Shown piece after piece: positions 1 to 54,743 of a DNA stretch of 64,000 bases (position 1 is the first letter of the stretch; every line of letters starts with the position of its first letter). The stretch lies in assembly GCF_044647545.1 (NCBI RefSeq), contig NZ_CP172818.1; one strand, written 5' to 3'. The notes beneath the pieces were generated by a model. The model did not search any database. It saw only the letters and a list, made by a program, of their open reading frames with translations, and was not told where the DNA came from. This DNA comes from Escherichia coli (GTDB lineage: Bacteria; Pseudomonadota; Gammaproteobacteria; Enterobacterales; Enterobacteriaceae). A program made the position numbers and the translations under genes.

Positions 1-325
1 AAAAATTTTCTTCCTGCATCAAGAAAAATATTATCTTACAATTTGGGCCAAATAAATTTAGAAATCGTGACAAGGCAAATGAATTAATTAGAATCTTAAT
101 TTCACAAAACAAAATATTTATATCTTCATGGGGTAAAACAAAAATAATAAACATAACTCATTGTGTTTTTTGATTTTAATGACAATCTAAAAGGACTTAA
201 TTTAAGAGTAAAAACAAACTCTAAACCCAGTTCGGATAAAAGCTTGTCATCTTGATAGGTAATATATAGGTACATAGACACATCAGAACGATCACTTACT
301 CCAATATCATTGGCCAGGATACTAT

Positions 326-952
326 ATGACATACGATAGTGAATTCGGATCACATGTATCCCTATATCGGGATAGAATCAAACAGGTTATTGATGACTCC
401 CTAAACGAACATCTTAACTCAATGATTCTACGTGTTGATCTGCATGACCCAATTGATACAGAAAATATGGATAACCCATTCTTTCAACCCAGGGTTGACT
501 CTGGTGCTATATCTCGCTTTACCAGTGCGTTAAAAGCAAAGCTTAAACATGATAAGCATATTAAAACTCAACGGAAAGACTGGCCTGATAGTCGACATTC
601 CACTTTACGTTACGCATGGGTCAGAGAATATACCAAAAATAGAAAGCGGCATTACCATTTGATACTGTGTTTCAATCAGGATGCTTATTATCATTTAGGT
701 GATTACGACTTAAACCGTAACACGTTACGTACAATGATAACGACAGCTTGGTACAGTGCACTTGGCATCCCTATAGATAGCTCGGGGAAGTTAGTTAATT
801 ACCCGCCAAATGGCAAATACCTTCTCAATCGTAAAAGGGACAACTTTGAGCAGACTTATAGCGATTTGATGAATAGGGTGGATTACATGACCAAAGTAAG
901 GACTAAAATAGTCGGTGACGGAGACCGTAATTTCGGCTGCAGTCGCGGGTAA
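326..952 (+). CDS. yfjJ: YagK/YfjJ-family prophage protein (inovirus Gp2-like), 208 aa
   Basis: Intact 208-aa ORF; ATG at 326 with AGGA 6 nt upstream; recognised as the YfjJ/YagK family from the protein sequence; lies in the prophage-like island. Confidence 0.6.
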   Translation: MTYDSEFGSHVSLYRDRIKQVIDDSLNEHLNSMILRVDLHDPIDTENMDNPFFQPRVDSGAISRFTSALKAKLKHDKHIKTQRKDWPDSRHSTLRYAWVREYTKNRKRHYHLILCFNQDAYYHLGDYDLNRNTLRTMITTAWYSALGIPIDSSGKLVNYPPNGKYLLNRKRDNFEQTYSDLMNRVDYMTKVRTKIVGDGDRNFGCSRG

Positions 953-970
953 TTTATTTTTTACAACAAT

Positions 971-1007
971 GGCCTTTCTTATGGCTGGAAAGGCCTGATT
1001 TGTTTGT
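971..1007 (+). terminator. Stem-loop plus T-tract after yfjJ
   Basis: GGCCTTTC...GAAAGGCC stem followed by TGATTTGTTTG, directly 3' of the yfjJ stop. Confidence 0.5.
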
Positions 1008-1129
1008 ATTAAGATATCGGTAATCTTTTGATGGTTGGAAGCCCGTCCTGGTAGACGACCTAGCCTACCGAAGATGTGAGTTATTCAAAAATGTCGCTTT
1101 CCCGCGTTCCGTAGACAAACGTACCTAAA

Positions 1130-3319: not shown

Positions 3320-4932
3320 ACGACCTCTCTCACCTTCTCATCAACTAATTGGGTTAACCGCTCAAGACTCGGGGCTGGATAAATGAATACGTGGATGCAA
3401 AGATTCGCAAACGGCGAATCCTCGATGAGGTCAGCCGCGAATTTTTCGAACAGCACCGCTGTTTCTTTCTCCAGGTCATCCTCGAACCCCGGCGTTTCAG
3501 GCTCGGTTAGTAGATTAGAGTCGTAGCCCACGAACAGAACAAACGTGAAACGATCGAGGTGAGCATCGAAAGGTTGGCTGCCATCAAGAATTTCGTCAAT
3601 GTCGTGGCGAAGCAGGTAGTTATCGTCTTTAATGTCGAGGATTTTTTTGCGCGCGGTATCGATGCAATCCGAAATGTCCTCGTACAACTGATCCCGTATC
3701 TCCGGCAATCTGACGGCAATGTTAATATCAGTCACCAACTCGCTGAAGCCAATCCAAAGCTGATCACCTTCTGGATCGCGGCGAACGATATGCACGTTTT
3801 CAAGAATTTTTTCGGCCCCTGCTTTTTCCACGTATAGCATGCAAGGAATAGGCTGGCTTTCGTGGTGCTGCCGGATCGTTGCGTGCAACAGCACTCGACC
3901 CAAAAATTCGCTGACGTCATGGAGCGATTTGAAGACGGAATTCTTTAGTCGTTCTCGCTTTTCAATGAATGTCAGTTTATGAATATCAGACATTTCTTTT
4001 GGTCGGAGAAAAACCTCATCCAACCATTGACAGACGTTATCCGCGATGTGCTTGTAGCGGTATTTCTTAAGTGAGTACTGCTGATGTAGAACCTGGCCTT
4101 TACGCTTAGCGCAGACCGAAGCCATAGGCGCTCTAAATGGCGTAAGGATGTGGGGTAAGTCCCGTTTGACGTAGATTTTGCGGCCTGACCGAGATTGGTC
4201 ATCTTCGACACGCTGCTTGAACCACTCAAGTAGGTCTGGTCGTAAGTAGGACTTGTCATCAGCACTGTGAATGCGTCGAGAATGCTCGCCCTTGCGCGTC
4301 ACAGTATCAAGGATGCGGCACCAAATGTCTTCGGCGACGGTTTCGGAACTGAGAATGACCCCATGTAGATCTTGGGAGGCCAGCCGTATGTTCTTGATCC
4401 CTAGAAGTTCCAGTTCGCGCAGGGATGAAAACACTTCCCATGTAGCCGCATCGATCCAATCTGAAACGCTTATACCTGAGTCTGTTAAAAAATTGTCTGT
4501 GCGTTTGTTGAGGTCATCGATGAGTTCCTGTCGACCTGGCTTATCTAGTCGGGCGTTTGGGCTGATCGTCAAGTACTCAAGGGTTTTGTTGACCTTTTCC
4601 TCTGTGACGATGGAGTACCTACGTCCAAGGGACAGGTCAGACTCACACTGCATTGATTTGTGCAAAATTGAACTGCAGGGGATCGTCTTTTTATCAGCAC
4701 CTTTTGAATTCTGAACGATGTCCGAAATGTTCCAACGTGTTTTGCCGGTGCTTTTTACCTGAACGAAGTCGATGTATCCATCAGATACAATGTCGATATC
4801 GTCTGTGACCTCGCAGCGCACACTGCGGATAGTCTTGTCACGAAGCATTCGGGTGACATGGTAAGCGGCTACGCAGTCCTGAAATAAGAAACCGTGCTTG
4901 GCGGCTACTCCGCCTGAATCGTTCGACTCCAT
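3316..4932 (-). CDS. yfjL: Helicase-partner protein, 538 aa (probable AbpA)
   Basis: 538-aa ORF whose stop overlaps the yfjK start (3316-3319), indicating translational coupling; length and sequence match my recollection of YfjL. Confidence 0.8.
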   Translation of the reverse strand: MESNDSGGVAAKHGFLFQDCVAAYHVTRMLRDKTIRSVRCEVTDDIDIVSDGYIDFVQVKSTGKTRWNISDIVQNSKGADKKTIPCSSILHKSMQCESDLSLGRRYSIVTEEKVNKTLEYLTISPNARLDKPGRQELIDDLNKRTDNFLTDSGISVSDWIDAATWEVFSSLRELELLGIKNIRLASQDLHGVILSSETVAEDIWCRILDTVTRKGEHSRRIHSADDKSYLRPDLLEWFKQRVEDDQSRSGRKIYVKRDLPHILTPFRAPMASVCAKRKGQVLHQQYSLKKYRYKHIADNVCQWLDEVFLRPKEMSDIHKLTFIEKRERLKNSVFKSLHDVSEFLGRVLLHATIRQHHESQPIPCMLYVEKAGAEKILENVHIVRRDPEGDQLWIGFSELVTDINIAVRLPEIRDQLYEDISDCIDTARKKILDIKDDNYLLRHDIDEILDGSQPFDAHLDRFTFVLFVGYDSNLLTEPETPGFEDDLEKETAVLFEKFAADLIEDSPFANLCIHVFIYPAPSLERLTQLVDEKVREVV

Positions 4933-5190
4933 TTAGACATCCGTGACAATTTTGCGAAAATTAAGGAGATGTTATGACACAGTCCAATCGGATCACTGCA
5001 TCATCACCAGTGATCTAAATACTTCACAGCCATTCTCGGTCGCAGGTATCAAGCTTTTCAGGATTCCACAAATATTGTAACCCTGACGTCTAATTTGGTT
5101 ATATAACATACTGCCCCAACTAACGTAAGGTAGGCACAGCCTTAATCAAGGTTTTGGTTTTCAAATAGTTCAGAGCTGAGACCGCCAACC

Positions 5191-5238
5191 GCACTATGGC
5201 ACTATGGCACTATGGCACTATGGCACTATGGCACTATG
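5191..5238. repeat. Tandem repeat (GCACTATG) x6
   Basis: Six perfect head-to-tail copies of an 8-bp unit read directly, between yfjM and the yfjL upstream region. Confidence 0.95.
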
Positions 5239-5291
5239 GCACCGCCAGCGATTGTAATCACACTTGATATTATAAAACACAGTTGCACGCA

Positions 5292-5555
5292 TTATTTCCT
5301 GGTTGGTAGGGTCATATCTCGATGCTCTTTGAGCAATGTCAACATCGCGTGTTCATGGCTTTCTATATTGTTGATGCCTTGCCCATCCGGACCCCACTCC
5401 TTATAGCTCATCATGATGGCTTGTTTTGGGCTCTCTGCTCGTTCTGTTTCGACGTAGAATTTTTTCTTGTCTGCTGGCGAATAATTACTAAGTATCGAGT
5501 TGCTGCTTGGTGAGATCAGGAAGAGGTTACCGAAACGATGGACATCATCCCCCAT
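5292..5555 (-). CDS. yfjM: Small prophage protein, 87 aa
   Basis: 87-aa ORF in the expected position between yfjL and rnlA; length matches YfjM; coding status not independently supported. Confidence 0.5.
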
Positions 5556-5696
5556 TTTGTGGACTGCCCCCCCGGTAGACGATCCTGCCCTATAGTTGGA
5601 GTGCCCCCTATTCAGGTGGCTAAATTTAGCAAATCAATACACTTCAGGGGGGTATTATTGTAGAGTTTCCCCATATGTTTCTATGGGATCCAGGAA

Positions 5697-6770
5697 ATGA
5701 CAATCAGGAGTTACAAAAACTTAAATCTGGTCAGGGCAAATATCGAGACTGAATCCAGACAATTCATTGAAAATAAAAACTATTCAATCCAATCAATTGG
5801 TCCTATGCCAGGGTCAAGGGCTGGGCTTCGGGTCGTATTTACCAGACCAGGGGTTAACTTGGCAACTGTGGACATTTTTTATAACGGGGACGGTTCGACT
5901 ACAATTCAATATCTCACTGGAGCCAATCGTTCTCTGGGCCAAGAGTTAGCGGATCATCTTTTTGAAACCATCAATCCTGCTGAATTTGAGCAGGTAAATA
6001 TGGTACTGCAAGGATTTGTAGAGACAAGCGTTCTACCTGTACTTGAGCTATCAGCAGATGAATCGCATATAGAGTTCAGAGAACACTCTCGTAACGCTCA
6101 TACCGTAGTGTGGAAAATTATTTCCACCAGCTATCAGGACGAATTGACTGTGAGCCTGCATATCACAACAGGTAAGCTCCAGATTCAGGGCCGACCGCTG
6201 TCATGTTACAGAGTTTTCACGTTTAACTTGGCAGCCCTGCTTGATTTACAGGGTTTGGAGAAAGTGCTAATCCGCCAGGAGGATGGTAAAGCTAATATTG
6301 TTCAACAGGAGGTTGCCCGCACTTACTTGCAGACTGTAATGGCCGATGCTTACCCGCATCTCCACGTGACTGCCGAAAAATTGCTCGTTTCAGGGCTATG
6401 TGTTAAACTCGCCGCCCCTGATTTGCCTGACTACTGTATGTTACTTTATCCTGAACTACGCACCATTGAAGGTGTCTTAAAAAGTAAGATGAGTGGGTTA
6501 GGCATGCCAGTACAGCAGCCGGCAGGTTTTGGAACTTACTTTGATAAACCTGCTGCTCATTACATTCTGAAACCGCAATTTGCAGCTACTCTTAGACCGG
6601 AACAGATTAACATCATCAGCACAGCCTATACTTTTTTTAATGTGGAACGTCATTCTCTGTTCCACATGGAAACTGTGGTCGATGCCAGCCGTATGATTTC
6701 TGATATGGCCCGGTTGATGGGTAAAGCCACTAGAGCGTGGGGAATAATCAAGGACTTATATATTGTTTGA
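5697..6770 (+). CDS. rnlA: RnlA toxin (RNase LS), 357 aa
   Basis: 357-aa ORF recognised as RnlA; followed by an overlapping small antitoxin gene. Confidence 0.9.
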   Translation: MTIRSYKNLNLVRANIETESRQFIENKNYSIQSIGPMPGSRAGLRVVFTRPGVNLATVDIFYNGDGSTTIQYLTGANRSLGQELADHLFETINPAEFEQVNMVLQGFVETSVLPVLELSADESHIEFREHSRNAHTVVWKIISTSYQDELTVSLHITTGKLQIQGRPLSCYRVFTFNLAALLDLQGLEKVLIRQEDGKANIVQQEVARTYLQTVMADAYPHLHVTAEKLLVSGLCVKLAAPDLPDYCMLLYPELRTIEGVLKSKMSGLGMPVQQPAGFGTYFDKPAAHYILKPQFAATLRPEQINIISTAYTFFNVERHSLFHMETVVDASRMISDMARLMGKATRAWGIIKDLYIV

Positions 6771-7134
6771 AATCACCGGAATTAACGTCTCAGGGGCTCT
6801 AAAAGCTGTCGTTATGGCGACCGGCTTCGAGAACCCTTTGTCCTCAGTTAATGAAATTGAGACGAAACTTTCTGCCCTACTGGGTAGTGAGACCACTGGT
6901 GAAATCCTTTTTGACCTCTTGTGCGCTAACGGTCCAGAGTGGAACCGCTTCGTTACGCTGGAAATGAAATATGGCCGGATCATGCTGGATACGGCCAAAA
7001 TTATTGATGAGCAGGACGTTCCGACACATATCCTGAGCAAACTGACTTTTACTTTACGTAATCATCCTGAGTACCTAGAAGCCTCTGTTTTGTCTCCCGA
7101 TGATGTACGCCAAGTCCTGTCAATGGATTTTTGA
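6763..7134 (+). CDS. rnlB: RnlB antitoxin, 123 aa
   Basis: 123-aa ORF overlapping the rnlA 3' end by 8 bp, the typical type II toxin-antitoxin arrangement. Confidence 0.85.
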   Translation: MFEITGINVSGALKAVVMATGFENPLSSVNEIETKLSALLGSETTGEILFDLLCANGPEWNRFVTLEMKYGRIMLDTAKIIDEQDVPTHILSKLTFTLRNHPEYLEASVLSPDDVRQVLSMDF

Positions 7135-7435
7135 AACTCTTCTTTCTAAACGAACCAGTATAGAATTCGCCCTTTTGGCATGATATTAACTTGTCCAATA
7201 TGATCAAATAGCATTAACCCCCCCTCACAACGTCCTGCATAGGGAACACGTTTTCCCCTGTGCACCCACGACTAAATTTCCCCCCCTTTAAACTTCTCAA
7301 TAATGTCACCAATTTTCTGGAAATCCTATGATGCCTTTCCCGGTAAATGGTGCTGTGAGTTCAGAAAGATTCTGCAATCTATGTGCATTGAAAAAATCTT
7401 CAGATAGATATCATTCTCCTGAACAATCCGATGAA

Positions 7436-7470
7436 CGGCAGAACCTCGCGGTTCTGCCGTTTTTGTTTTA
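7436..7470 (+). terminator. Terminator-like hairpin in the yfjP leader
   Basis: CGGCAGAAC...GTTCTGCCG stem followed by TTTTTGTTTTA, about 20 nt upstream of the yfjP RBS; a diverged copy recurs at 15269-15300. Confidence 0.5.
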
Positions 7471-7488
7471 CTTTTCAGAGGAGTGGTG

Positions 7489-8352
7489 ATGAAAAATTTT
7501 GAAGTTCTGCAGCCACTACAGAACTCCCTTTCCGGTCTACCGCTATGGGTATCTGAACGTATATTGCAGCAGATAAATCAGTTAACCCACTACGAGCCAG
7601 TGATCGGCATCATGGGTAAAACTGGGGCGGGAAAGAGTAGCCTTTGCAATGCCCTGTTTGCCGGTGAAGTATCGCCGGTCAGCGATGTAGCGGCCTGTAC
7701 ACGTGATCCTTTACGCTTTCGCCTGCAGATTGGAGAACACTTTATGACCATCGTGGATCTGCCCGGCGTGGGCGAAAGTGGCGTTCGCGATACCGAGTAT
7801 GCTGCGCTGTACCGCGAACAACTTCCCCGGCTCGACCTGATTCTGTGGCTGATTAAGGCTGATGATCGGGCACTGGCGACTGATGAGCATTTTTACCGTC
7901 AGGTGATTGGCGAAGCATACCGGCATAAGATGCTGTTTGTTATCAGCCAGTCAGACAAAGCTGAACCCACCAGCGGTGGAAATATCCTTTCCACAGAGCA
8001 GAAACAAAATATCAGCCGCAAAATCTGCCTGCTGCATGAGCTATTCCAGCCCGTGCATCCGGTGTGTGCCGTGTCGGTTCGCCTGCAGTGGGGACTAAGG
8101 GTGATGGCAGAGCGGATGATTAAGTGTCTGCCGCGTGAGGCCAGCAGCCCGGTAGTAGCGCTACTGCAACATCCCTTTCGAACAACGGTAGCCCGGGAGC
8201 AGGCACGTGACGATTTCGGTGAAACCGTAGGTGCCATACTCGATACGGTAAGCACCTTTCCCCTTATTCCCGCCCCGGTGCGGACCATTATTCAGGCCGT
8301 GCGTTCCTCGGTGGTGTCAGTGGCCCGCGCTGTCTGGGATTTCTTCTTCTGA
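7489..8352 (+). CDS. yfjP: Prophage GTPase, 287 aa
   Basis: G1/Walker A GKTGAGKSS and G3 DLPGVG motifs; ATG at 7489 preceded by GAGGAG (the listed ORF begins 6 nt earlier at an in-frame GTG). Confidence 0.85.
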   Translation: MKNFEVLQPLQNSLSGLPLWVSERILQQINQLTHYEPVIGIMGKTGAGKSSLCNALFAGEVSPVSDVAACTRDPLRFRLQIGEHFMTIVDLPGVGESGVRDTEYAALYREQLPRLDLILWLIKADDRALATDEHFYRQVIGEAYRHKMLFVISQSDKAEPTSGGNILSTEQKQNISRKICLLHELFQPVHPVCAVSVRLQWGLRVMAERMIKCLPREASSPVVALLQHPFRTTVAREQARDDFGETVGAILDTVSTFPLIPAPVRTIIQAVRSSVVSVARAVWDFFF

Positions 8353-8443
8353 GTGTTTAATTCTGCCCTATTATTCTCCGAGCCCTGTCGCAAGTGCGGC
8401 AGGGCTTTCTTTATTTGTTTTACCCATACTGAGGAGTCTGCTT

Positions 8444-9263
8444 ATGACCCGTCTGGCTTCGCGCTTTGGCGCTGCAAACCAGATACGCCGTGACCGTCCG
8501 CTGACACATGAAGAACTGATACGCCATGTACCCAGTATTTTTGGGGAAGACCGGCACATCCCGCAGTGAACGGTATGCGTACATTCCCACCATTACCGTC
8601 CTGGAAAATCTGCAGCGGGAAGGCTTTCAGCCGTTCTTCGCCTGCCAGACCCGTGTGCGCGACCCGGGCCGCCGGGGATACACAAAACACATGCTGCGTC
8701 TGCGGCGGGCCGGAGAGATAAACGGAGAACATGTCCCTGAAATTATTCTGCTCAACTCTCATGACGGTACCTCCAGCTACCAGATGCTGCCGGGTTACTT
8801 CAGGTTCGTCTGCCAGAACGGGTGCGTCTGTGGCCAGTCTCTGGGGGAAGTGCGTGTTCCACACCGGGGAAATGTAGTGGAGAAAGTTATCGAAGGGGCT
8901 TACGAGGTGGTGGGCGTGTTTGACCGGATAGAGGAGAAGCGTGATGCCATGCAGTCGCTGGTCCTGCCGCCACCGGCACGCCAGGCGCTGGCACAGGCGG
9001 CACTGACTTACCGTTATGGTGACGAACATCAGCCCGTCACCACCGCCGACATTCTGACGCCGCGACGCCGGGAGGATTACGGTAAGGACCTGTGGAGCGC
9101 ATATCAGACCATCCAGGAGAATATGCTGAAAGGCGGGATTTCCGGTCGCAGTGCCAGAGGAAAACGTATCCATACCCGGGCCATTCACAGCATTGATACC
9201 GACATTAAGCTCAATCGCGCATTGTGGGTGATGGCAGAAACACTGCTCACGCAACTGCAGTAG
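8444..9263 (+). pseudogene. yfjQ: DUF932-family protein, frameshifted near codon 41
   Basis: ATG at 8444 with GAGGAG RBS encodes MTRLASRFGAAN... for 41 codons, then TGA at 8567-8569; the remaining 245 aa continues in the +1 frame; total span 820 nt is not a multiple of 3. Confidence 0.65.
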
Positions 9264-9479
9264 ACGTTTCATGTTGCCACGTTGTTAATATCGGACACCA
9301 CCTGTCCGCATCGCTATGTGCTCGTGTGCCTCAATCCCCCGGTTATAGCTTTTAACCCCCGTTACATCTGGCTTTTGCAGAAATAAAAAATAGTTTCTGC
9401 GTTGTCCATACCCTGTCCGCCCCCCTCTTTAAAGTAATCACATCATTTTCAGTCAGTTAACTTTCCTGGAGAATCTCTC

Positions 9480-10181
9480 ATGACACAGGCAGAACGCCGC
9501 CATGACCGGCTGGCTGTCAGGCTGTCACTGATAATCAGCCGTCTGGTTGCGGGTGAAACGTTGAGCGTGCGCAAACTGGCGGCTGAGTTTGGCGTGTCAG
9601 TGCGCACGCTGCGGCGTGATTTTCGTGAACGACTGATGTATCTGGACCTGGAGTATCAGTCCGGATACTGCCGCTTACGCACTGCTGGCAGTGAGATGCA
9701 GATGGTGCCCGACGTGCTTATCTTTGCCCACCGCAGCGGGCTGGCCGGGCTTTTTCCCGGCCTTGACCGCCGTCTGGTGAATGCACTGCTGATGTGCGAT
9801 GAGTCTCCCTGCGTGATAGCACCAGCCAATCCGGTTCCTTCGCCTTCAGGAGCATTGTCTTTCTGGAGACTGATTCAGGCCATTACCGGGCGCAGGCGGG
9901 TGACGCTGATTGCAGAGGGGCGACGCTGTGAGCGCCTAGCTCCCTGCCGGTTACTCATCCACCAGCAGACCTGGTATCTGGTGGCTGAACACGAAGGGCA
10001 TATCGCCGTATTCACACTTGATGAAATCCATCTGATTCAGCCTTTGCAGGAGACTTTTCGCCGCAATGACAGTCTGTGTCGCCTGGTTGAAGACCCGGTC
10101 TTCATTCAGGCCTTACCCCATTTTCGCTTTATCCAGCATTCACTGCTTACGTTTGTTCCGGCCGACAGCCCACCGGAATAG
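9480..10181 (+). CDS. yfjR: HTH plus WYL-domain transcriptional regulator, 233 aa
   Basis: N-terminal HTH-like segment ([21 protein letters not shown]) and a WYL motif ([11 protein letters not shown]) visible in the translation. Confidence 0.85.
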
Positions 10182-10221
10182 CGCAGGCGTTGTTATCAAC
10201 CCGGCAACATGGAGGAGCCCA

Positions 10222-10458
10222 GTGCCCGTTATTGCCATTATCGCCATTGTTATCATCGTCATCATTCTGAACAAAACCGGAGTGTCCGACAGCCTCACGG
10301 CCCTGACACTTGCAACCGTTGCCGCACTACTGACGGGAGGTGGTGCAGCCGGTGCTGCCAGTGTCGCGCTGACGCCGTTCGTCGGCGTGCCGGTGGGTAT
10401 TTTTGTGGGAATTTATGTCTTTGCCAAAGTGGTTCGTCTGATTTCAGGGAAAAAATAA
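10222..10458 (+). CDS. ypjK: Small hydrophobic membrane protein, about 78 aa
   Basis: GTG start at 10222 preceded by GGAGGA; two hydrophobic segments; stop overlaps the yfjS start (TAATG). Confidence 0.55.
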   Translation: MPVIAIIAIVIIVIILNKTGVSDSLTALTLATVAALLTGGGAAGAASVALTPFVGVPVGIFVGIYVFAKVVRLISGKK

Positions 10459-10901
10459 TGAAACGTAAAACACTACCTCTGCTGGCGCTGGTTGCCACCT
10501 CTCTGTTTCTGAGCGCCTGCGATGACAGGAGTGATGACCTCAAAGCTATCAGTAAATTTAAGGACCTCACGCCCCCGCGCTTCAGCGATGTGGTCAGCCG
10601 TCAGGATGATGTCAGCGAAGAATGGTCACAGGTTGGCTTCTCATCCGGTCTCACCCTGCAGGTCTTACGTACCCGTGAGTCGCCCGATGGTTGCGAGGGT
10701 GGCAGTTACTACTATCTGGTAGATATGGAGGAGAAAACCGTCCAGCCGCTGATGAATGCGCTTTGTATTGCCGACAATATCAAACTGGAATACCACGAAG
10801 TTACGGACCCGTATACGAAAGAAAAATACTTCGAATATTCCCATGACGGCAAACTGATGGGACGGCTGCTGATACCGTCAAACCCTGATAACCGGGAATA
10901 A
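10458..10901 (+). CDS. yfjS: Lipoprotein, 147 aa
   Basis: Signal peptide with lipobox LSAC; ATG at 10458; the longer listed ORF from 10209 is an upstream extension in the same frame. Confidence 0.8.
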   Translation: MKRKTLPLLALVATSLFLSACDDRSDDLKAISKFKDLTPPRFSDVVSRQDDVSEEWSQVGFSSGLTLQVLRTRESPDGCEGGSYYYLVDMEEKTVQPLMNALCIADNIKLEYHEVTDPYTKEKYFEYSHDGKLMGRLLIPSNPDNRE

Positions 10902-10924
10902 AAACAACGAGAAAGGAGACATAA

Positions 10925-11392
10925 ATGAAAATACGTTCACTAAGCCGGTTTGTACTGGCAAGTACAATGTTCGCCAGCTTTACAGCCTCTGCGGTCCCCG
11001 GACTCTGGCAACAGGGGTACGGTCAGGGCAATGCGGAATACAGTGTGACGGATGCCAGCGGAAAGATGTTTACCATCAACTGCACGGGAAATCCGGACCA
11101 GAACGGTATTTACCAGCACTCGGTTTTTCTGATCCTCGCCGGGGATAAAACGGTCAGCTCGCATGATGACAGTACCGGCATCACAGTGGTGATGGACCAT
11201 AAGCAATATGCCATTCCCTCAACCCTTGGCTGGCGTAACGGAGATAATGCCTGGTTCAGCTTCATCATGGATATCCGTAAGGCCCGGCAGTTCGACGTCT
11301 ACGTCAATGACCAGAAAGTTGGATCGTTTAACCCTGATGTTCGGAATGCACAAAAGGTCCTGCCAACATTAGCGGACTGCACTAACGACTGA
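10925..11392 (+). CDS. yfjT: Secreted/periplasmic protein, 155 aa
   Basis: Intact ORF with N-terminal signal peptide; RBS GGAGA upstream. Confidence 0.8.
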   Translation: MKIRSLSRFVLASTMFASFTASAVPGLWQQGYGQGNAEYSVTDASGKMFTINCTGNPDQNGIYQHSVFLILAGDKTVSSHDDSTGITVVMDHKQYAIPSTLGWRNGDNAWFSFIMDIRKARQFDVYVNDQKVGSFNPDVRNAQKVLPTLADCTND

Positions 11393-11787
11393 CGGCTGCG
11401 CCTTCCCTACCATAACAACCCTGATTGCCTCCGGCGGTCGGGGGTTTCTTTTTTCTCCTTAATCTCCAGAGGTAGGCCACGTACTTTCGAACGATGAGCG
11501 CAGTGGTCAGTTTTTTTCAGATATATTTATCTTTTTTTGGCTGTAAGCTCCGCTGTGAGCGCAGGCTGTGTGAAAACTCCTGATCACTTCTTGGTCTAAG
11601 CGATGGTTTCATATGATCAACCATTCTTGATAAACCCATGCGACGAACTGACTTTTTCATTAAAATTAGAAATATACGAATGAATACTGCGGATACCGAC
11701 ATGGCCAATCACATTCAAGGACAAGGCAGGCACCAGGTGACATTACTCCCTGATGCACTGGATGATTTTGTCACTGAAGATAACTTA

Positions 11788-11931
11788 AGTAAGTTTAATC
11801 AGTTCATCACGGGTCGGTGGCATATCGAGATAATTAATTATTGTCGGTTCGTTGCCGTTGTTATGAAGCATCTCCAGCGTGTTGCGTGAGGTGCCACAGG
11901 CCGGGTTGTGATAGATGGTAATGTTGCTCAT
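11788..11931 (-). pseudogene. Arsenate reductase ArsC N-terminal fragment (47 codons)
   Basis: Reverse-strand translation MSNITIYHNPACGTSRNTLEM... matches the ArsC N-terminus and then hits a premature stop. Confidence 0.7.
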
Positions 11932-11943
11932 ATCAGTATCTAA

Positions 11944-12935
11944 TTACAAAGTGACAGAGAGCCGCCACGCCAGCGCGGCCAGAGTGACAAACAGCACCGG
12001 CACAGTCATGACAATGCCGGTACGGAAGTAATATCCCCAAGTGATTGTCATATTTTTCTGGGCAAGCACATGCAGCCACAGCAGAGTTGCCAGACTGCCA
12101 ATCGGGGTGATTTTCGGGCCTAAATCACAGCCAATCACATTGGCATAAATCATTGCCTCTTTGACGACGCCAGTCGCCGTACTCCCGTCAATCGACAGCG
12201 CACCAATCAGCACCGTCGGCATATTGTTCATCACTGATGAGAGAAATGCCGTCAAGAAGCCGGTGCCGAACGTCGCTGCCCATAACCCCTTGTCTGCCAG
12301 CAGATTCAGCACGCCAGACAGGTACTCCGTGAACCCTGCATTGCGCAGGCCATAGACCACGATGTACATGCCCAGTGAGAAAATAACGATCTGCCATGGC
12401 GCACCGCGCAGGACTTTTCCGGTGTTGATCGAATGACCTCTTTTCGCCACCACAAACAGCACTGCTGCGCCAGCGGCCGCTATCGCACTGACCAGGATTC
12501 CCTGCGGCTCCAGAAAGAAGAAACCGACAAGCAGCAATAACAGGACAATCCAGCCCGCCCTGAAGGTTGCCAGATCCTTGATCGCACTGGCAGGCGTCTT
12601 CAGCAGCGAAACTTAATACGTTGCCGGAATAACTCTGCGAAAGAAGAGATACAGCATAATCAGCGTGGCCGCAATCGCTGCCGCATCCACGGAGATCATA
12701 ACGGAGGCGTACTGCGCAAAGCTCAGACCGAAGAAGTCCGCCGAGACGATATTCACCAGGTTAGAAACAATGAGCGGCAGGCTGGCCGTATCTGCAATAA
12801 ATCCTGCAGCCATGACAAAGGCCAGTGTCGTGCCCTGGCTGAACCCAGTGCGATCAGCATCGCAATCACAATCGGCGTCAGGATCAGCGCGGCGCCGTCA
12901 TTGGCAAACAACGCATCAACAGCGGCACCGAGCAA
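11944..12935 (-). pseudogene. Arsenite efflux pump ArsB, N-terminally truncated and frameshifted
   Basis: Three reverse-strand ORF fragments (197, 66 and 60 aa) in different frames, all ArsB-like membrane sequence; the N-terminal roughly 100 aa is missing where AT-rich DNA begins. Confidence 0.8.
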
Positions 12936-13094
12936 GACTTTCCAGGTGAACAGCGCTCTAGGTAGGAACTTTGTCGTTGATAGAGTCTTCAGCCATCAAC
13001 ACTGTATCGAGTAATGAAATTGGTTGCTAGAAAGTCGATGATTTGTTGCGTATGATTAAAAATCAACCTTAAAGGCTTTATACATGGATTTGCT

Positions 13095-14798
13095 ATGGCT
13101 TTTGTATCAGAAAGAGAAATTGTAAGAAAGATATTTAGCAAAAAAATTGACTTTACGATCTTGGCATTTTTCTATATTTCCTCTATTTTTTTTCTTCTTT
13201 GTAGTGGCGTTCTCTTTCAATATTTTACCGCTGCCTTCACAAAAGGTAATTGTTATGAATGCTCAATGAAACTTGATTACATAAAACAATTTTATTTTTC
13301 ACTGGAAACCGCATGGTACCTCATATCTGCTGTTGCAGTATTTATTGCATCTGTTTTTATACAGCATAGAATTAAAGCTTATTTAACATTATTAGCTATT
13401 ACATGGATTGTACTAACAATAACAGATGTGGCGTTAATACACGCCTTAGACAATATAGCCATGAATAATATTTTGTTAAATATACTATATAATCTTTTTG
13501 GGGCGATTTTATTGTCACTGTTTATGTGTTTATCAAATTCCCTCCTTTTCCACCTTAATAAGATAAAACATATTCCAATGATTTTATCGGCAATGATTCC
13601 ATTAGTTTCCGCAATAATAATAGCCATACTCATAACCGCTGTTATATATTTATTGTTTGCCCGGCAGGCGGTAGAGATTGAGATGGATATATCTGAAGGT
13701 TCAGACATCGCATATGTAGGTGTAAAAGATAATGAGGAATCATTTGGGTTTTTAAATGATAAAAAAACAGACACACCAACGTATCTGGATGTAATCAAAA
13801 ATGGTAGTTTGATATATAATGATACACAGGGTTTAAGTGGTGCTGATATTTATATTGTCTCCGGTTGTTATGCCCTTCCAGATTTACTTCGCAATGTACC
13901 GCTTGATGCTAAAAAATCTTTTCTGAATGTAAAAAAGCTAGAAATCACACAGAAACTTCCAATGATGGGGTTCATACAAGGTGAATCCGCTGATGTGATG
14001 CCTAAAGCAGCATCCAGGTTAAGTTTGAGCAAGCAAGATGATAAATTTATGCTAGCCTCAAGTGTTACTGACTCTCAAATAAAATTTAAATCAAACAATG
14101 CACAATTGATGGTTGCTTTCGCATTTATGCCAATAACAACGAATGGTATTTTACATGATTATACATACGATATAATAATAAATGATAAAAAATATAAAAT
14201 TGAAAATCATGTTGCACCTCTATCTAGGCTTGATAAAAATAAGAAGATGAAGTGTGAATACCAGCAAATATCGGATTTAACAAATACGTATAACATTAAT
14301 GCAAATTACTTAACGGGTTTTTTACTTGTCCTAAAACCAGATGATATTATTAATTACAACAATAGCCCTTCCGTACTACTCAAGACTGATTTTGCGTTCT
14401 ATAAAAAAACATACCAGAAGCTTGATAAAATATATGATGACATAAGCAATGGAAAATTATCTTCACTGAGAGCAACAGGTATCTCCCAGTTTAGTATCAA
14501 CGGGAAACATTTGTCGTTAAGGCCAGAATCGGAGATTATTATTTCTGAAGGGAGTTTGTATGGACTAGTTAATAAAAGCAAAAAAATCAAAATATATGGC
14601 ACAGCAGATCTTGTTTTTGTTGATAACAAGATAATGAACCTTCGTAAAATAACTTATTTGCAATCTAAGCTAGAAATTTTTGGTTCTTCTATTATGGATA
14701 TATTAAAGTATATATTTGGTTTAGGTCTGCTAGCAATTTCTATAAAATTCATTCATTCTTACTTTAAGAATGATGTGAATGAAAATTTATTCTTGTAA
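13095..14798 (+). CDS. yfjW: AT-rich inner-membrane protein, 567 aa, function unknown
   Basis: 567-aa ORF; strongly hydrophobic N-terminal about 190 aa followed by a hydrophilic Asn/Lys-rich domain; very low GC. Confidence 0.75.
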   Translation: MAFVSEREIVRKIFSKKIDFTILAFFYISSIFFLLCSGVLFQYFTAAFTKGNCYECSMKLDYIKQFYFSLETAWYLISAVAVFIASVFIQHRIKAYLTLLAITWIVLTITDVALIHALDNIAMNNILLNILYNLFGAILLSLFMCLSNSLLFHLNKIKHIPMILSAMIPLVSAIIIAILITAVIYLLFARQAVEIEMDISEGSDIAYVGVKDNEESFGFLNDKKTDTPTYLDVIKNGSLIYNDTQGLSGADIYIVSGCYALPDLLRNVPLDAKKSFLNVKKLEITQKLPMMGFIQGESADVMPKAASRLSLSKQDDKFMLASSVTDSQIKFKSNNAQLMVAFAFMPITTNGILHDYTYDIIINDKKYKIENHVAPLSRLDKNKKMKCEYQQISDLTNTYNINANYLTGFLLVLKPDDIINYNNSPSVLLKTDFAFYKKTYQKLDKIYDDISNGKLSSLRATGISQFSINGKHLSLRPESEIIISEGSLYGLVNKSKKIKIYGTADLVFVDNKIMNLRKITYLQSKLEIFGSSIMDILKYIFGLGLLAISIKFIHSYFKNDVNENLFL

Positions 14799-15268
14799 CG
14801 CATTTGGCTCCAATTGGAGCCTTTTTATGACTATTTATTAAAATATCCTAAGTTAAGCCTGTTTTTAAAGCAGGCTTGAGCGTGAAGCGGACACTCATAC
14901 CTGCTTTAAAGTGGCGTTTTTGTCGTTACCCATACCTATATTTTCTGTTGTTTAACTGCCAGAACTGAGCGGTTGAAAAGCCAGAAATATGCCGAGCCAG
15001 CGGCATGGAAGCGCCAGCAGCTGTTGAATGGAGTACTGTAGGCAAATGGTGCCGTAACCGGCTTTCGTACTGAAAGGTTCTGTCTATCCCATCCCTTCTC
15101 TTGTATCTAACATTTAGTTGTGAATAGCTACTGTAAATGCCCCTACAAAATGAACCATTATTTTTAGAGGGCGTCTGGCACTCCAACTTCCGCTTTTGGC
15201 ACAGAACGGCCTATCAGCAATATAAAAGCATTCAGATATATATCATTTCTACAAACATACCCGATTAA

Positions 15269-15300
15269 CGGCAGAATCTCAGGATTCTGCCGCTTTTTTA
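15269..15300 (+). terminator. Terminator-like hairpin, second copy of the yfjP-type leader
   Basis: CGGCAGAATC...GATTCTGCCG stem plus T-run; flanks align with 7399-7492. Confidence 0.45.
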
Positions 15301-15321
15301 TTATTTTTCAGGGGAGTAGTA

Positions 15322-15695
15322 ATGAGCAACTCTGAAGGTTGGTAGTCATTTTAGCAAACGCTTTCTGGTCTGCCGCAGTGGGCATCGGCTGATTGCGTAG
15401 CAGGGCCACTGGTATCTGCCGGTATCACCGACATTAACATTGAAGACGACCAGGGCATTCACGTCCGCCTGATAGTTCGTGATGCCGAAGGTCGGATGGT
15501 TGGCGGGCATGGAACTTTGAACCGGACGCCGGTGAAGGTTTTAACCGCTATATCCACAGGTCAGGCATCCGCACCGACACCTTCCCCCGCTGACTCCGAA
15601 TCATTTACCAGCAACATTTCACCTTCCCAAACGCGCTTTATTACCTCATACGCCAGCCATCGCCGCTGGCGTTTTTTATTCACGGAGACATACCC
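15322..15695 (+). pseudogene. Degenerate remnant beginning with a yfjP-like N-terminus
   Basis: ATG after the duplicated leader gives MSNSEGW then stop; downstream frames retain ...QTLSGLPQW..., resembling YfjP residues 12-20, but no intact ORF. Confidence 0.4.
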
Positions 15696-16154
15696 ATGAC
15701 AACACAGACACAGTACGACCTCGTACCCGCTAACGGATCCGAATTTGAGTTGAGCGTAACGCAGGTACCCGATGAACAGCATATCCGCTTCTGGCCGCAG
15801 CACTTTGGCACCATCCCGCAGTGGATAACGCTGGAACCGCGCATTTTCGCCTGGATGGACCGCTTCTGTGATGAGTACTGCGGGGGTATCTGGTCCTTTT
15901 ACACGCTCAGCAATGGCGGAGCGTTTATGGCTCCTGATGCTGACGGTGACGATAAATGGCATTTGCTCAACGGCATGAATGGCAATGGTGCGGAAATGAG
16001 CGCGGAAGCCGCAGGTATCGCTGTCTGCCTGATTGAATATAGCCATCACGCCTGCCTCACCGAATGCGATGCCATGACGGAGCACTATTACCGCCTGCGG
16101 GATTACGCTCTGCAGCACCCTGAATCCAGCGCCATTATGCGCATTATTGATTAA
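15696..16154 (+). CDS. yfjX: Antirestriction protein (ArdB/KlcA-like), 152 aa
   Basis: 152-aa ORF recognised as YfjX-family antirestriction protein. Confidence 0.85.
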   Translation: MTTQTQYDLVPANGSEFELSVTQVPDEQHIRFWPQHFGTIPQWITLEPRIFAWMDRFCDEYCGGIWSFYTLSNGGAFMAPDADGDDKWHLLNGMNGNGAEMSAEAAGIAVCLIEYSHHACLTECDAMTEHYYRLRDYALQHPESSAIMRIID

Positions 16155-16162
16155 GGATACTC

Positions 16163-16645
16163 ATGATGGAACAGTCACTCATCCCACAGACACCGGTACT
16201 TCCACTGACCGCACAACGCACGGTAAAACGCGCCTTAACGCTGCTTGACCGACACCTGCGCGAAACAGGCGTGGCATTCACCTCCACTCAGGCTGCTCGT
16301 GACTGGCTGAAGCTGAAAATGGCGGGGCTGGAGCGTGAAGAATTTATGATGCTGTATCTGAACCAGCAGAACCAGTTGATTGCCCACGAAACCCTGTTTG
16401 CCGGTTCTATTAGCAGTACCGAGGTACATCCCCGTGAGGTGGTCAAACGCGCCCTGTATTTCAATGCAGCAGCAGTGATACTGGCGCATAACCACCCCTC
16501 CGGCGACACTACTCCCAGCCAGGCAGATAAGACTATAACGCAGCGTCTGGTGCAGGCGCTTCAGCTCGTTGATATCCGTGTCCCTGACCATCTGATTGTT
16601 GGTGGCAGGCAAATCTATTCGTTCGCAGAACACGGTCTGCTTTGA
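16163..16645 (+). CDS. yfjY: RadC-like JAB-domain protein, 160 aa
   Basis: JAB/MPN metal-binding motif HNHPSGD visible in the translation. Confidence 0.85.
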   Translation: MMEQSLIPQTPVLPLTAQRTVKRALTLLDRHLRETGVAFTSTQAARDWLKLKMAGLEREEFMMLYLNQQNQLIAHETLFAGSISSTEVHPREVVKRALYFNAAAVILAHNHPSGDTTPSQADKTITQRLVQALQLVDIRVPDHLIVGGRQIYSFAEHGLL

Positions 16646-16854
16646 GGTATTACATGAGAATTATCAGTAAACGCCGGGCAATGACGATATACCGCCAGCA
16701 TCCTGAGTCCCGAATCTTTCGCTACTGCACCGGAAAATATCAGTGGCACGGTAGCGTCTGTCATTACACCGGCAGGGATGTTCCGGATATCACAGGAGTC
16801 CTGGCTGTGTACGCCGAACGCCGCAGGACCGCAGCGGACCGTATGCTTGACTGA
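16642..16854 (+). CDS. ypjJ: DUF987 small protein
   Basis: Small ORF overlapping the yfjY stop by 4 bp; conserved position ahead of the toxin-antitoxin pair; exact start uncertain. Confidence 0.65.
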   Translation: MRYYMRIISKRRAMTIYRQHPESRIFRYCTGKYQWHGSVCHYTGRDVPDITGVLAVYAERRRTAADRMLD

Positions 16855-16891
16855 TGAGTATCACCCTGAACTGACAATAAAGAGGTTATGA

Positions 16892-17209
16892 ATGAGCAAC
16901 ACCACATGGGGCCTGCAGCGAGATATCACGCCGCGCCTGGGAGCACGTCTGGTGCAGGAGGGCAACCAGCTGCACTATCTGGCTGACCGGGCCAGTATCA
17001 CCGGTAAGTTTAGTGACGCCGAATGTCCTAAGCTGGATGTGGTATTTCCACATTTTATCAGCCAGATAGAGTCGATGCTGACCACTGGTGAACTGAATCC
17101 CCGCCATGCCCAATGCGTCACCCTGTACCACAACGGTTTTACCTGCGAAGCCGATACTCTTGGTAGTTGCGGCTACGTATACATCGCTGTTTACCCCACT
17201 CAACGCTAA
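16892..17209 (+). CDS. yfjZ: CbeA-family type IV antitoxin, 105 aa
   Basis: 105-aa ORF recognised as YfjZ/CbeA family; immediately upstream of the cognate toxin. Confidence 0.85.
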
Positions 17210-17229
17210 CTAATTTCACGAGAGCAAGC

Positions 17230-17559
17230 ATGAACACTCTACCTGCTACAATTTCGCAGGCGGCGAAGCCCTGCCTGTCGCCAGTGGCTGTCTGGCAAAT
17301 GCTACTGACACGCCTGCTGGAACAACACTATGGCCTGACACTGAACGACACGCCGTTCAGTGATGAAACTGTTATTAAGGAACATATCGATGCTGGTATC
17401 ACTCTGGCCGATGCAGTCAATTTTCTGGTGGAAAAGTACGAACTGGTACGTATCGATCACAGAGGATTTTCGTGGCAACAACAGTCTCCATATATTTCCG
17501 TAGTAGATATTCTGCGAGCAAGGCGCTCTACCGGCTTGCTAAAAACTAATGTGAAATAA
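17230..17559 (+). CDS. ypjF: CbtA-family type IV toxin, 109 aa
   Basis: ATG at 17230 ([10 protein letters not shown]...); the listed ORF has an N-terminal extension. Confidence 0.85.
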
Positions 17560-17923
17560 ACGCTTAAATACAGAGCAGACTGAAGGAAAGCAAAATGCTA
17601 ATCTCATAGACGAAGAGACTCCCGCTGTAACCTCCCCTCCCCCGAAAAAACCTGACATTTTCTTTTAGGACCAACAATGGGACCAAAATGAAAATTGAAC
17701 TGAAGATTACAATCAATTTAACAACAAGTTACACAACCAATTCAACTCCCGCCAGCTCCACCAATCATGATTGGACGGTGTAAGGACAACACCAATAAAA
17801 ACAGGAAGTTAGCAGTCTCAGCAGGACACCGACCAGACGGTGAGGAGACAAAAAAGGATACGCAAAGGAGCCGCGGCCCCTGGTGATATGAAAGCCCACA
17901 GATGTGGGCTTTTTCGTTGATGG

Positions 17924-47990: not shown

Positions 47991-48060
47991 TTATTCGGGC
48001 GGATAAGGCGTTTTTGCCTCATCCGCCGCTCTGTACACAATGCCTGATGCGACGCTGGTG
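47991..48060. repeat. REP-like palindromic elements after proX
   Basis: GGCGGATAAGGCG...GCCTCATCCGCC-type units. Confidence 0.5.
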
Positions 48061-48178
48061 CGTCTTATCATACCTACAAACCACACCGCACATTTCAACA
48101 ATCTATCTTTCATCCCATATTCATCAACATCCGCTATTATTGATTTCCAGCTTAATCATCACCTGATGAACAAAAATA

Positions 48179-54671: not shown

Positions 54672-54743
54672 GAAAGACGCGCATTTGTTATCATCATCCC
54701 TGAATTCAGAGATGAAATTTTGGCCACTCACGAGTGGCCTTTT
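54672..54743 (+). ncRNA. micA: MicA (SraD) small regulatory RNA
   Basis: GAAAGACGCGCATTTGTTATCATCATCCCTGAATTCAGAGATGAAATTTTGGCCACTCACGAGTGGCCTTTTT between luxS and gshA, ending in a terminator hairpin. Confidence 0.85.

Follow-up and report, generated by a model that had tools for sequence, protein, structure and literature searches.

The known lfgABCDE operon of the CP4-57 island in Escherichia coli and its relatives on islands and plasmids

The five-gene block at positions 15696–17559 of the window (the whole 64,000-nt stretch of E. coli DNA analysed) is the already known lfgABCDE operon of CP4-57, an ordinary locus rather than a new one. Considered jointly, the data make it probable (roughly 85%) that lfgABCDE is the final transcription unit ahead of attR in CP4-57, which is integrated at ssrA, and serves as an establishment-and-retention module.

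Identity and gene products of the block

The block comprises five ORFs, all on the + strand, separated by gaps of 8, 8, 37 and 20 bp, and its limits had been placed exactly in the first-pass annotation. The DNA is an exact substring of the K-12 MG1655 chromosome (NC_000913.3 2775919–2777782, 100% identity), where the matching segment is annotated as lfgA, lfgB, ypjJ, yfjZ and ypjF. All five proteins match a single Pfam family each, with scores well over the curated cut-off, and together with the K-12 annotation these matches bear out the co-directional yfjX, yfjY, ypjJ and yfjZ as well as ypjF, and their families, as first named. The genes are as follows:

15696..16154, + strand: lfgA (yfjX), ArdB/KlcA-family antirestriction protein, 152 aa (PF03230, PDB, PHROG, K-12 identity)
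16163..16645, + strand: lfgB (yfjY), RadC-like JAB/JAMM protein, 160 aa (PF04002, PDB 2QLC, motif)
16654..16854, + strand: ypjJ, DUF987 protein, 66 aa, C-terminally frameshifted (PF06174, DNA alignment)
16892..17209, + strand: yfjZ (lfgD), CbeA/YeeU-family type IV antitoxin, 105 aa (PF06154, structures)
17230..17559, + strand: ypjF (lfgE), CbtA-family type IV toxin, 109 aa (PF06755, literature)

Called mechanically, two of the ORFs start further upstream, ypjJ at TTG 16642 and ypjF at TTG 17167. The dN/dS ratio is 0.08–0.25 for every gene in pairwise comparisons with four other cassettes, indicating five genuine genes under purifying selection and no chance ORFs. Antisense ORFs (105–185 aa) across the block were without any Pfam match and were treated as spurious. 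No credible RNA family was found in or beside the block using Rfam (whole window at gathering thresholds; 14700–18100 at E ≤ 1), and a sigma-70 scan gave no promoter-like site on the + strand, with counts not above those in shuffles. The yfjX-ypjF block has been called one operon and cloned as a five-gene unit near attR (PMC5371832; PMC10846083); in 2024 it was renamed lfgABCDE and characterised (PMC10846083).

LfgA matched PF03230 (Antirestrict; 135.6 bits, cut-off 25, E 6.9e-40, profile positions 2–92 of 92) and the PHROG anti-restriction family (E 1.6e-54), and a sequence search of the PDB retrieved 2WJ9 (E 4.8e-72, residues 11–152) and KlcA 2KMG (E 8.9e-23). The depositor's name for 2WJ9 is "intergenic-region protein"; we take it to be ArdB. 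YfjX is an ArdB/KlcA-family protein with a predicted antirestriction function, and in the literature, relief of type I restriction in vivo is described for ArdB/KlcA homologues.

LfgB matched PF04002 (RadC; 157.3 bits, cut-off 22.1, E 2e-46) and PDB 2QLC (E 1.4e-26), and its zinc motif HNHPSGDTTPSQAD (HxHx7Sx2D, residues 109–122) is intact and kept in all five cassettes. Against NCBIfam NF000642, the equivalog model of full-length RadC/YicR, it scored 165.7 bits, below the cut-off of 180, with a match covering only profile positions 71–211 of 212, while it exceeded the threshold of the subfamily model TIGR00608 (156.3 against 133.85). By these scores, LfgB is a short RadC paralogue of the mobile-element kind, distinct from the housekeeping RadC. 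It has been reported to be a protease that degrades the antitoxin/repressor MqsA in vitro; according to PMC10846083, activity against MqsA and casein appeared only after long (overnight) incubation, and contaminating proteases could not be strictly excluded by the authors.

YpjJ matched PF06174 (138.7 bits, cut-off 25, E 6.1e-41), but in the full-length test it was found to lack the 73-aa form with the C-terminus GPYxxLxSxTLN. DNA alignment with the four other cassettes located a 1-bp deletion after 16823, with a TGA at 16848–16850 in the ancestral frame, and the deletion exchanges the last 17 residues for 10 unrelated ones. The 26 full-length DUF987 homologues are 73–76 aa long (exactly 73 aa in 23), and every one keeps the conserved C-terminus and ends in TLN, one with two extra residues. 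The K-12 YpjJ, which is used as the DUF987 representative, is thus a frameshifted copy, and for tests of the family YkfH or YeeT would serve better. A PDB sequence search with YpjJ gave no match. An AlphaFold2 model of intact DUF987 had a mean pLDDT of 90, with only 2 of 5 models confident and a shallow alignment; since a Foldseek search of the PDB with it returned nothing significant (best E 0.6, TM 0.33), the fold does not point to a function for DUF987. The proposal of a prophage antirepressor role for DUF987 proteins has been tested by others, with a negative result for dicBp (PMC10448788).

YfjZ matched PF06154 (CbeA_antitoxin; 176.0 bits, E 2.5e-52), and its residues 1–105 match the solved YfjZ structures 2EA9 and 2JN7. 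YpjF matched PF06755 (CbtA_toxin; 223.4 bits, E 4.9e-67); a PDB sequence search with it gave no match, and there is no solved toxin structure. The antitoxin gene precedes the toxin gene on one strand with a 20-bp gap, which is the CbeA/CbtA arrangement. As a type IV system, a CbeA/CbtA pair is defined by a toxin directed at FtsZ/MreB and an antitoxin that works without toxin binding. YpjF is toxic, gives lemon-shaped cells, binds FtsZ and blocks division, and is neutralised by YfjZ; for the family member CbtA, binding of MreB as well as FtsZ is reported (PMC5371832). Wen et al. found the pair to be weakly expressed and without autoregulation, and antitoxin deletion mutants to be viable (PMC5371832), properties unlike those of a classical addiction module.

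Upstream region and island end

Four features precede lfgA:

15322..15593, + strand: ypjI, DUF905 pseudogene, homologue of ykfF (pseudogene in NC_000913.3; frameshifted DUF905 in RefSeq)
15431..15440, + strand: ACATTAACAT, ACAT-N2-ACAT motif (read from the sequence; MqsA footprint in PMC10846083)
15521..15533, + strand: ACCG-N5-CGGT palindrome, 163 bp 5' of lfgA (read from the sequence)
15650..15678, + strand: terminator-like hairpin with an 8-bp G+C-rich stem, 7-nt loop and T run (scan)

Three-frame translation of ypjI showed a YkfF-like peptide broken across frames by stops. DUF905 lies upstream of ArdB in 20 of 33 related loci, and ypjI is a decayed sixth member of the cassette. Neither this pseudogene, nor the ypjJ frameshift, nor the 2024 renaming (PMC10846083) had been mentioned in the first-pass annotation. 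Through the decay of both ypjI and ypjJ, the CP4-57 copy of the module is no longer intact, a point against the proposed module role.

MqsA has been found to shift and footprint DNA upstream of lfgA (EMSA and footprinting). The ACAT-N2-ACAT motif lies 256–265 bp upstream of lfgA in the present sequence as against 245–252 bp in that study, in which the ACCG-N5-CGGT palindrome was also considered and was not needed for MqsA binding (PMC10846083). The hairpin is located 18 bp before the lfgA start codon, directly 5' of the GGAGA ribosome-binding site, with a folding energy of -16.8 kcal/mol (z = -3.9). Its stem is the same in CP4-6 and in an E. hormaechei island, with a varying loop, and was found exactly in 13 of 31 related loci; as the stem is invariant wherever present, covariation can neither support nor refute the hairpin.

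Beyond the block lies the attachment site, and two defence systems are found elsewhere on the same island:

17741..17764, + strand: CP4-57 attR core, matching the 3' end of ssrA perfectly (TTCAACTCCCGCCAGCTCCACCAA; alignment)
1130–4932: Hachiman HamA/HamB (= AbpA/AbpB; PADLOC, E 1e-220 to 1e-266)
5697–7134: RnlAB

The attR core was aligned with both K-12 sites, attL and the degenerate attR (psaA), and with the unoccupied ssrA site of a strain of ST648. It begins 181 bp past the ypjF stop, which makes the cassette the terminal module of the island. Compared with K-12 CP4-57, the DNA is the same over the block and upstream back to yfjW, the ypjI pseudogene and the ypjJ frameshift being common to both copies. 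The context alone differs: the ssrA repeat at attR, degenerate in K-12, is perfect in the present sequence, and to the right of attR lies chromosome of the ST648 type, 1–10% diverged from K-12. A K-12-identical island with a pristine attR is seen in an ST648-type chromosome. The coexistence of antirestriction and defence functions on one island, which had been the reason for recording the block, holds with Hachiman and RnlAB. None of the five cassette proteins matched any of 5027 PADLOC models, with which AbpA/AbpB (HamA/HamB), as positive control, did match.

Related cassettes and their distribution

The same gene order was found in CP4-6, CP4-44, an E. hormaechei island and pNDM-CIT, with amino-acid identities of 57–90%. 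The check proposed at first pass, a comparison with the yeeS-yeeV and ykfG-ykfI cassettes, thus found the order kept, at this identity and with the dN/dS values given above. Three of these cassettes compare as follows: 1) CP4-6 of K-12 (ykfF-yafX-ykfG-ykfH-yafW-ykfI) has the same six-gene order and strand, with amino-acid identities to CP4-57 of 76% (ArdB), 78% (RadC), 90% (DUF987), 84% (antitoxin) and 78% (toxin). CP4-6 also keeps the hairpin in front of ArdB, and the cassette is likewise at the island end, adjoining thrW, but CP4-6 retains an intact DUF905 (YkfF, 79 aa) and a 73-aa DUF987 (YkfH), both lost in CP4-57. 2) CP4-44 of K-12 (yeeS-yeeT-cbeA-cbtA-yeeW), the prototype type IV TA system, shares the order RadC-DUF987-antitoxin-toxin at 58–74% amino-acid identity; it has no ArdB or DUF905 gene, yeeR lies upstream of yeeS, both the antitoxin (122 aa) and the toxin (124 aa) are longer, and there is an extra yeeW downstream. 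3) The conjugative plasmid pNDM-CIT (IncHI1A, MOBH) carries the five genes in the present order at 70–90% amino-acid identity. This cassette is plasmid-borne, without DUF905 or the upstream hairpin, and is followed by an orphan DNA methyltransferase and a RES-Xre TA system. In 2024, Samuel et al. reportedly found that anti-defence islands in plasmid leading regions cluster ArdB/KlcA with small establishment genes. Such islands resemble the present block in combining antirestriction and small establishment genes on transferred DNA, whereas CP4-57 is an integrative island and is not known to have an oriT or relaxase.

At least part of a 2.4-kb query was matched by 3440 of 5426 complete E. coli genomes, at up to 6 places per genome, and with the order shared by CP4-6 and CP4-44 this agrees with the initial description of the cassette as known and recurrent. 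Plasmid records matching the query numbered 1367, of which 1237 were typed conjugative, and in most of the sampled rows the match was confined to the JAB segment of radC; many conjugative plasmids thus carry RadC JAB genes. In IMG/VR, 51 viral contigs have the cassette in the same gene order, and in the 33 loci with enough upstream DNA, CbeA was present in 33, RadC in 32, DUF987 in 29 and ArdB in 29; these related loci are mostly from Enterobacteriaceae and are not independent samples. A tRNA scan of the 51 loci gave four tRNA genes, too few to define att sites. Only one of 50,697 phage records carries the cassette, a 3.2-kb unannotated fragment with 70% identity, and the cassette occurs instead on islands that have P4-type integrases and on a conjugative plasmid of the IncHI type. 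The word "prophage" in the first-pass annotation does not stand, therefore, except as a historical label; the cassette is an island/plasmid module, not a phage one.

Role of the operon

The most likely role of lfgABCDE is that of an island establishment-and-retention module that was subsequently linked to the MqsRA/RpoS stress response. The predicted antirestriction protein would protect the element on entering a new host, and the toxin-antitoxin pair next to attR would make it costly for cells to lose the island; within E. coli, the MqsRA/RpoS response may since have become connected to the operon. A more elaborate version, in which RadC-JAB and DUF987 are functional partners of CbeA/CbtA in a four-part system (for example, with the JAB protease as the missing trigger or regulator of the type IV TA pair), ArdB was added as an entry factor, and the unit provides establishment and addiction for a CP4-type island that is still mobile, seems unlikely to us. 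Compatible with this version are the near-invariant synteny (RadC in 32 and DUF987 in 29 of the 33 loci, upstream of CbeA-CbtA) and the finding of a K-12-identical island and pristine attR in a chromosome unrelated to K-12.

Of the competing explanations, the one to be taken most seriously, though we doubt it, is that the operon has become purely a stress-response unit, domesticated by the host, in which MqsA represses, MqsR activation induces, and LfgB degrades MqsA and so frees rpoS, the antirestriction and TA genes being passengers without a mobile-element role. It draws on the EMSA shift and footprint of MqsA and its degradation in vitro (PMC10846083), on the presence of both ACAT-N2-ACAT and ACCG-N5-CGGT in the window, and on the approximately 100-fold loss of H2O2 resistance upon ypjF deletion (PMC5371832). 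However, this evidence comes from one group of collaborating laboratories, the LfgB assay in the available text of PMC10846083 includes no catalytic-dead control, and islands from other genera as well as an IncHI plasmid keep the five-gene order under purifying selection. Since the cassette is kept outside E. coli, selection for it there cannot stem from the MqsA circuit of E. coli.

Far less probable is a true phage moron or host-takeover block of temperate phages. PHROG families do exist for the ArdB, RadC and DUF987 proteins, the 51 IMG/VR viral contigs carry the cassette, and 4 of 5 sampled loci had tail-gene matches, with tail-fibre, baseplate-wedge or baseplate-hub genes within a few kb. 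But these tail genes are convergent, on the other strand, and 40 of the 51 contigs end less than 8 kb upstream of the toxin, placing the cassette at the predicted provirus edge, as would be expected if an adjacent island had been drawn into the provirus prediction; moreover, the single short phage record argues against a phage origin, and among the annotated genes in the yfjI-to-attR stretch of CP4-57 in the window there is none for phage structure or lysis. TA systems frequently act against phages, and the island also carries Hachiman and RnlAB, so that YfjZ/YpjF, possibly with JAB and DUF987, might form an abortive-infection system and the block itself be a defence locus. This we regard as the least probable explanation: the PADLOC search was negative for all five proteins, the titles and abstracts listed by literature searches mention no anti-phage phenotype of CbtA/CbeA, and the adjacent ArdB is an anti-defence, not a defence, protein.

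An establishment-and-retention module thus remains the preferred interpretation. The block alone adds nothing new, being a textbook locus of K-12 to which two papers are dedicated and for which structures of YfjZ and of an ArdB homologue have been solved; its value for annotation is that the cassette is an island/plasmid module and the last module before attR. The linkage of RadC, DUF987 and the TA pair, if functional, would bear on how type IV toxins become activated.

Gene content and identity of the block

The five co-directional genes described in the first-pass annotation were recovered at identical coordinates in the ORF list, and Pfam agreed with their assignment, each protein matching one family with a score far over the curated cut-off (5/5):

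15696-16154, + strand, lfgA (yfjX), ArdB-family ORF (PF03230 Antirestrict, 135.6 bits)
16163-16645, + strand, lfgB (yfjY), RadC-like JAB ORF (PF04002, 157.3 bits)
16642/16654-16854, + strand, ypjJ ORF (DUF987, PF06174, 138.7 bits)
16892-17209, + strand, yfjZ (lfgD) ORF (PF06154 CbeA_antitoxin, 176.0 bits)
17167/17230-17559, + strand, ypjF (lfgE) ORF (PF06755 CbtA_toxin, 223.4 bits)

The genes are separated, 5' to 3', by gaps of 8, 8, 37 and 20 bp, and the long antisense ORFs across the block have no family match. Among PDB entries, LfgA matches 2WJ9 (E 4.8e-72) and KlcA (2KMG, E 8.9e-23), LfgB matches the RadC JAB structure 2QLC (E 1.4e-26), and YfjZ matches its own solved structures (2EA9 and 2JN7); PDB held no solved relatives of YpjF or YpjJ. 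LfgB has an intact HxHx7Sx2D motif (residues 109-122) and passes the RadC subfamily model. Since it fails the equivalog model of full-length chromosomal RadC, with a match limited to profile positions 71-211, LfgB is, judging from its sequence, a short mobile-element paralogue of RadC.

The block is the yfjXY-ypjJ-yfjZF operon of the "cryptic prophage" CP4-57, because 15696-17559 is an exact substring of the annotated K-12 locus (NC_000913.3, 2775919-2777782). In a megablast search of 5,426 complete E. coli genomes with 15400-17800 as the query, K-12 strains carried this region at 99.8-100% identity, annotated as lfgA, lfgB, ypjJ, yfjZ and ypjF, and window 1-17744 is K-12 sequence except for two short patches. 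The observation is thus real, its reading correct and the finding already known, as had been claimed: the block is an exact K-12 copy, and the operon has been studied directly in two papers. Wen et al. (2017) cloned the same five genes as a single unit, located "near the right attachment site", and reported that YpjF is toxic, gives rise to lemon-shaped cells and interacts with FtsZ, and that YfjZ, YafW and CbeA each singly neutralise it (PMC5371832). In Fernandez-Garcia et al. (2024; PMC10846083), the operon was renamed lfgABCDE, MqsA was found to bind upstream of it, and deletion of lfgB led to sensitivity to H2O2, acid and heat; purified LfgB degraded MqsA in vitro upon overnight incubation, a result for which, according to the authors, contaminating proteases are not strictly excludable. 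Two motifs discussed in that paper are present in the window:

15431-15440, ACATTAACAT
15521-15533, ACCG-N5-CGGT

Upstream hairpin and damaged members of the cassette

Two further features lie upstream of lfgA:

about 15322-15593, ypjI, a DUF905 pseudogene and sixth cassette member
15650-15672, terminator-like hairpin followed by a T run (to 15678)

The hairpin follows the DUF905 pseudogene and immediately precedes the ribosome-binding site of lfgA; its folding energy is -16.8 kcal/mol (z = -3.9). Its stem is the same in the CP4-6 and Enterobacter islands, with a variable loop, and occurs exactly in 13 of 31 related loci; covariation is unusable because the stem never varies. The hairpin may be a putative attenuator of the lfg operon.

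In CP4-57, ypjJ has suffered a 1-bp deletion after 16823, which causes a frameshift, and the ancestral frame additionally holds a TGA at 16848-16850. As a consequence, the protein ends in 10 unrelated residues instead of the 17 conserved at its C-terminus. This conserved C-terminus was kept in all 26 full-length DUF987 homologues collected (23 of 73 aa, the other 3 of 75-76 aa). Comparison with these homologues therefore indicates that the K-12 reference YpjJ is a damaged copy, though annotated as intact. AlphaFold2 models residues 49-72 of intact DUF987 as a long beta hairpin, the part missing from CP4-57 YpjJ; the predicted fold has no analogue in PDB. A role of DUF987 as antirepressor of dicBp has been tested elsewhere, with a negative result (PMC10448788).

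Recurrence of the cassette on islands and plasmids

Comparison with the yeeS-yeeV and ykfG-ykfI paralogous cassettes showed that gene order matches that of the window block, both in CP4-6 (ykfF(DUF905)-yafX-ykfG-ykfH-yafW-ykfI) and in CP4-44 (yeeS-yeeT-cbeA-cbtA-yeeW) of K-12, with protein identities of 76-90% and 58-74%, respectively. Further copies in the same order are present in an island on the Enterobacter hormaechei chromosome and in the IncHI1A conjugative plasmid pNDM-CIT. In every cassette comparison dN/dS was 0.08-0.25 for every gene. We also retrieved 51 IMG/VR loci by toxin alignment and called their genes with small profile HMMs derived from the cassettes above, the common order being GTPase, DUF932, (YfjS, YfjT), DUF905, ArdB, RadC, DUF987, CbeA, CbtA, (YeeW). 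In 33 loci, mostly close relatives and hence non-independent samples, 2.3 kb or more of sequence precedes the toxin; of these, 33 encode CbeA, 32 RadC, 29 DUF987, 29 ArdB and 20 DUF905. The cassette is thus recurrent, as proposed.

Its designation as a prophage cassette, however, was not borne out. Only 1 of 50,697 sequenced phage records matches the block, this being a 3.2-kb unannotated fragment with 70% identity, and the CP4-57 stretch inside the window, from yfjI to attR, contains no gene annotated as phage structural. In IMG/VR, 40 of the 51 loci have under 8 kb of contig on the upstream side of the toxin, and in 4 of 5 sampled loci downstream ORFs on the opposite strand have matches among tail-fibre, baseplate-wedge or baseplate-hub families. 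These features place the cassette at the edge of provirus predictions, which appear to clip into a neighbouring island. Plasmid matches are more numerous (1,367 of 72,556 records), nearly all of them confined to a conserved 200 bp in the JAB domain of plasmid radC; complete cassettes were found in pNDM-CIT-type IncHI plasmids, F-prime plasmids and chromosome pieces filed as plasmids. We conclude that the cassette belongs to genomic islands of the P4-integrase type and to certain conjugative plasmids, and that "prophage" is a historical name.

The coexistence of antirestriction and defence functions on one island was upheld, as two systems share CP4-57 with the block:

1130-4932, AbpB and AbpA (Hachiman HamB, E 4e-220, and HamA, E 3e-266)
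5697-7134, rnlA-rnlB toxin-antitoxin

PADLOC contains no model for RnlAB, and its models gave no match to any of the five proteins of the block.

Island end, mosaic patches and possible role

The block forms the last module of the CP4-57 island, the right end of which lies just downstream:

17741-17764, attR core TTCAACTCCCGCCAGCTCCACCAA, 181 bp beyond the ypjF stop

In the window, attR repeats ssrA perfectly, but in K-12 it is degenerate. To the right of attR (17745-64000) the sequence diverges by 1-10% from K-12 and matches ST648-type genomes at 100% identity; in those genomes ssrA lies directly next to ypjA and the site is empty of the island. This combination of island, attR and right flank occurs in none of the 5,426 complete genomes of E. 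coli. Taken together, these sequence comparisons suggest that a K-12-type CP4-57 was recently acquired, site-specifically, by an unrelated lineage.

Within this flank, 30000-52000 aligns with ST648-type genomes at 100% identity, but in two pieces; about 1.86 kb present in those genomes is absent from the window, which is collinear with K-12 there. The ypjA autotransporter gene (17924-22621) is an allele different from that of K-12 (about 94-97% identity per kb), with indels in the proline-rich PDPK-type repeat (18875-18924) and a longer mechanical ORF (1565 aa from GTG). Rfam matches to naRNA4 (just over the gathering score), MicA and an Arg/Ser tRNA cluster (47997-48074, 54672-54743 and 57656-58244, respectively) are all expected for this chromosomal region.

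One patch of the island, in the yfjQ (DUF932) gene (8471-9241), shares 99.5% identity with its DUF932 counterpart in a different island family (IMG/VR loci L051 and L058). The yfjQ region is about 75% identical to K-12 over 901 bp (8400-9300) with flanks 100% K-12, and its longest ORF, starting at 8526, encodes 245 aa versus 273 aa in K-12. The patch has the appearance of a mosaic or of gene conversion between paralogous islands. The second patch (11572-11789), in the yfjT-yfjU region, has 16 substitutions relative to K-12 in otherwise identical surroundings and adjoins arsenate-reductase and arsenic-transporter pseudogenes. Directly upstream of the cassette, where G+C content is 32%, the 567-aa ORF yfjW (13095-14798) has no match in Pfam, NCBIfam or PADLOC.

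The present results and published work describe a co-transcribed unit encoding ArdB-family, JAMM-motif and decayed DUF987 proteins together with a type IV toxin-antitoxin pair, the toxin of which targets FtsZ. Its ancestral role would have been the establishment and retention of the island, with the antirestriction protein presumably acting at entry and the toxin-antitoxin pair beside attR acting against island loss. Against a classical addiction role, the pair shows low expression and no autoregulation, and its antitoxin is deletable (PMC5371832). The stress-response wiring through MqsA and LfgB may represent a later domestication.
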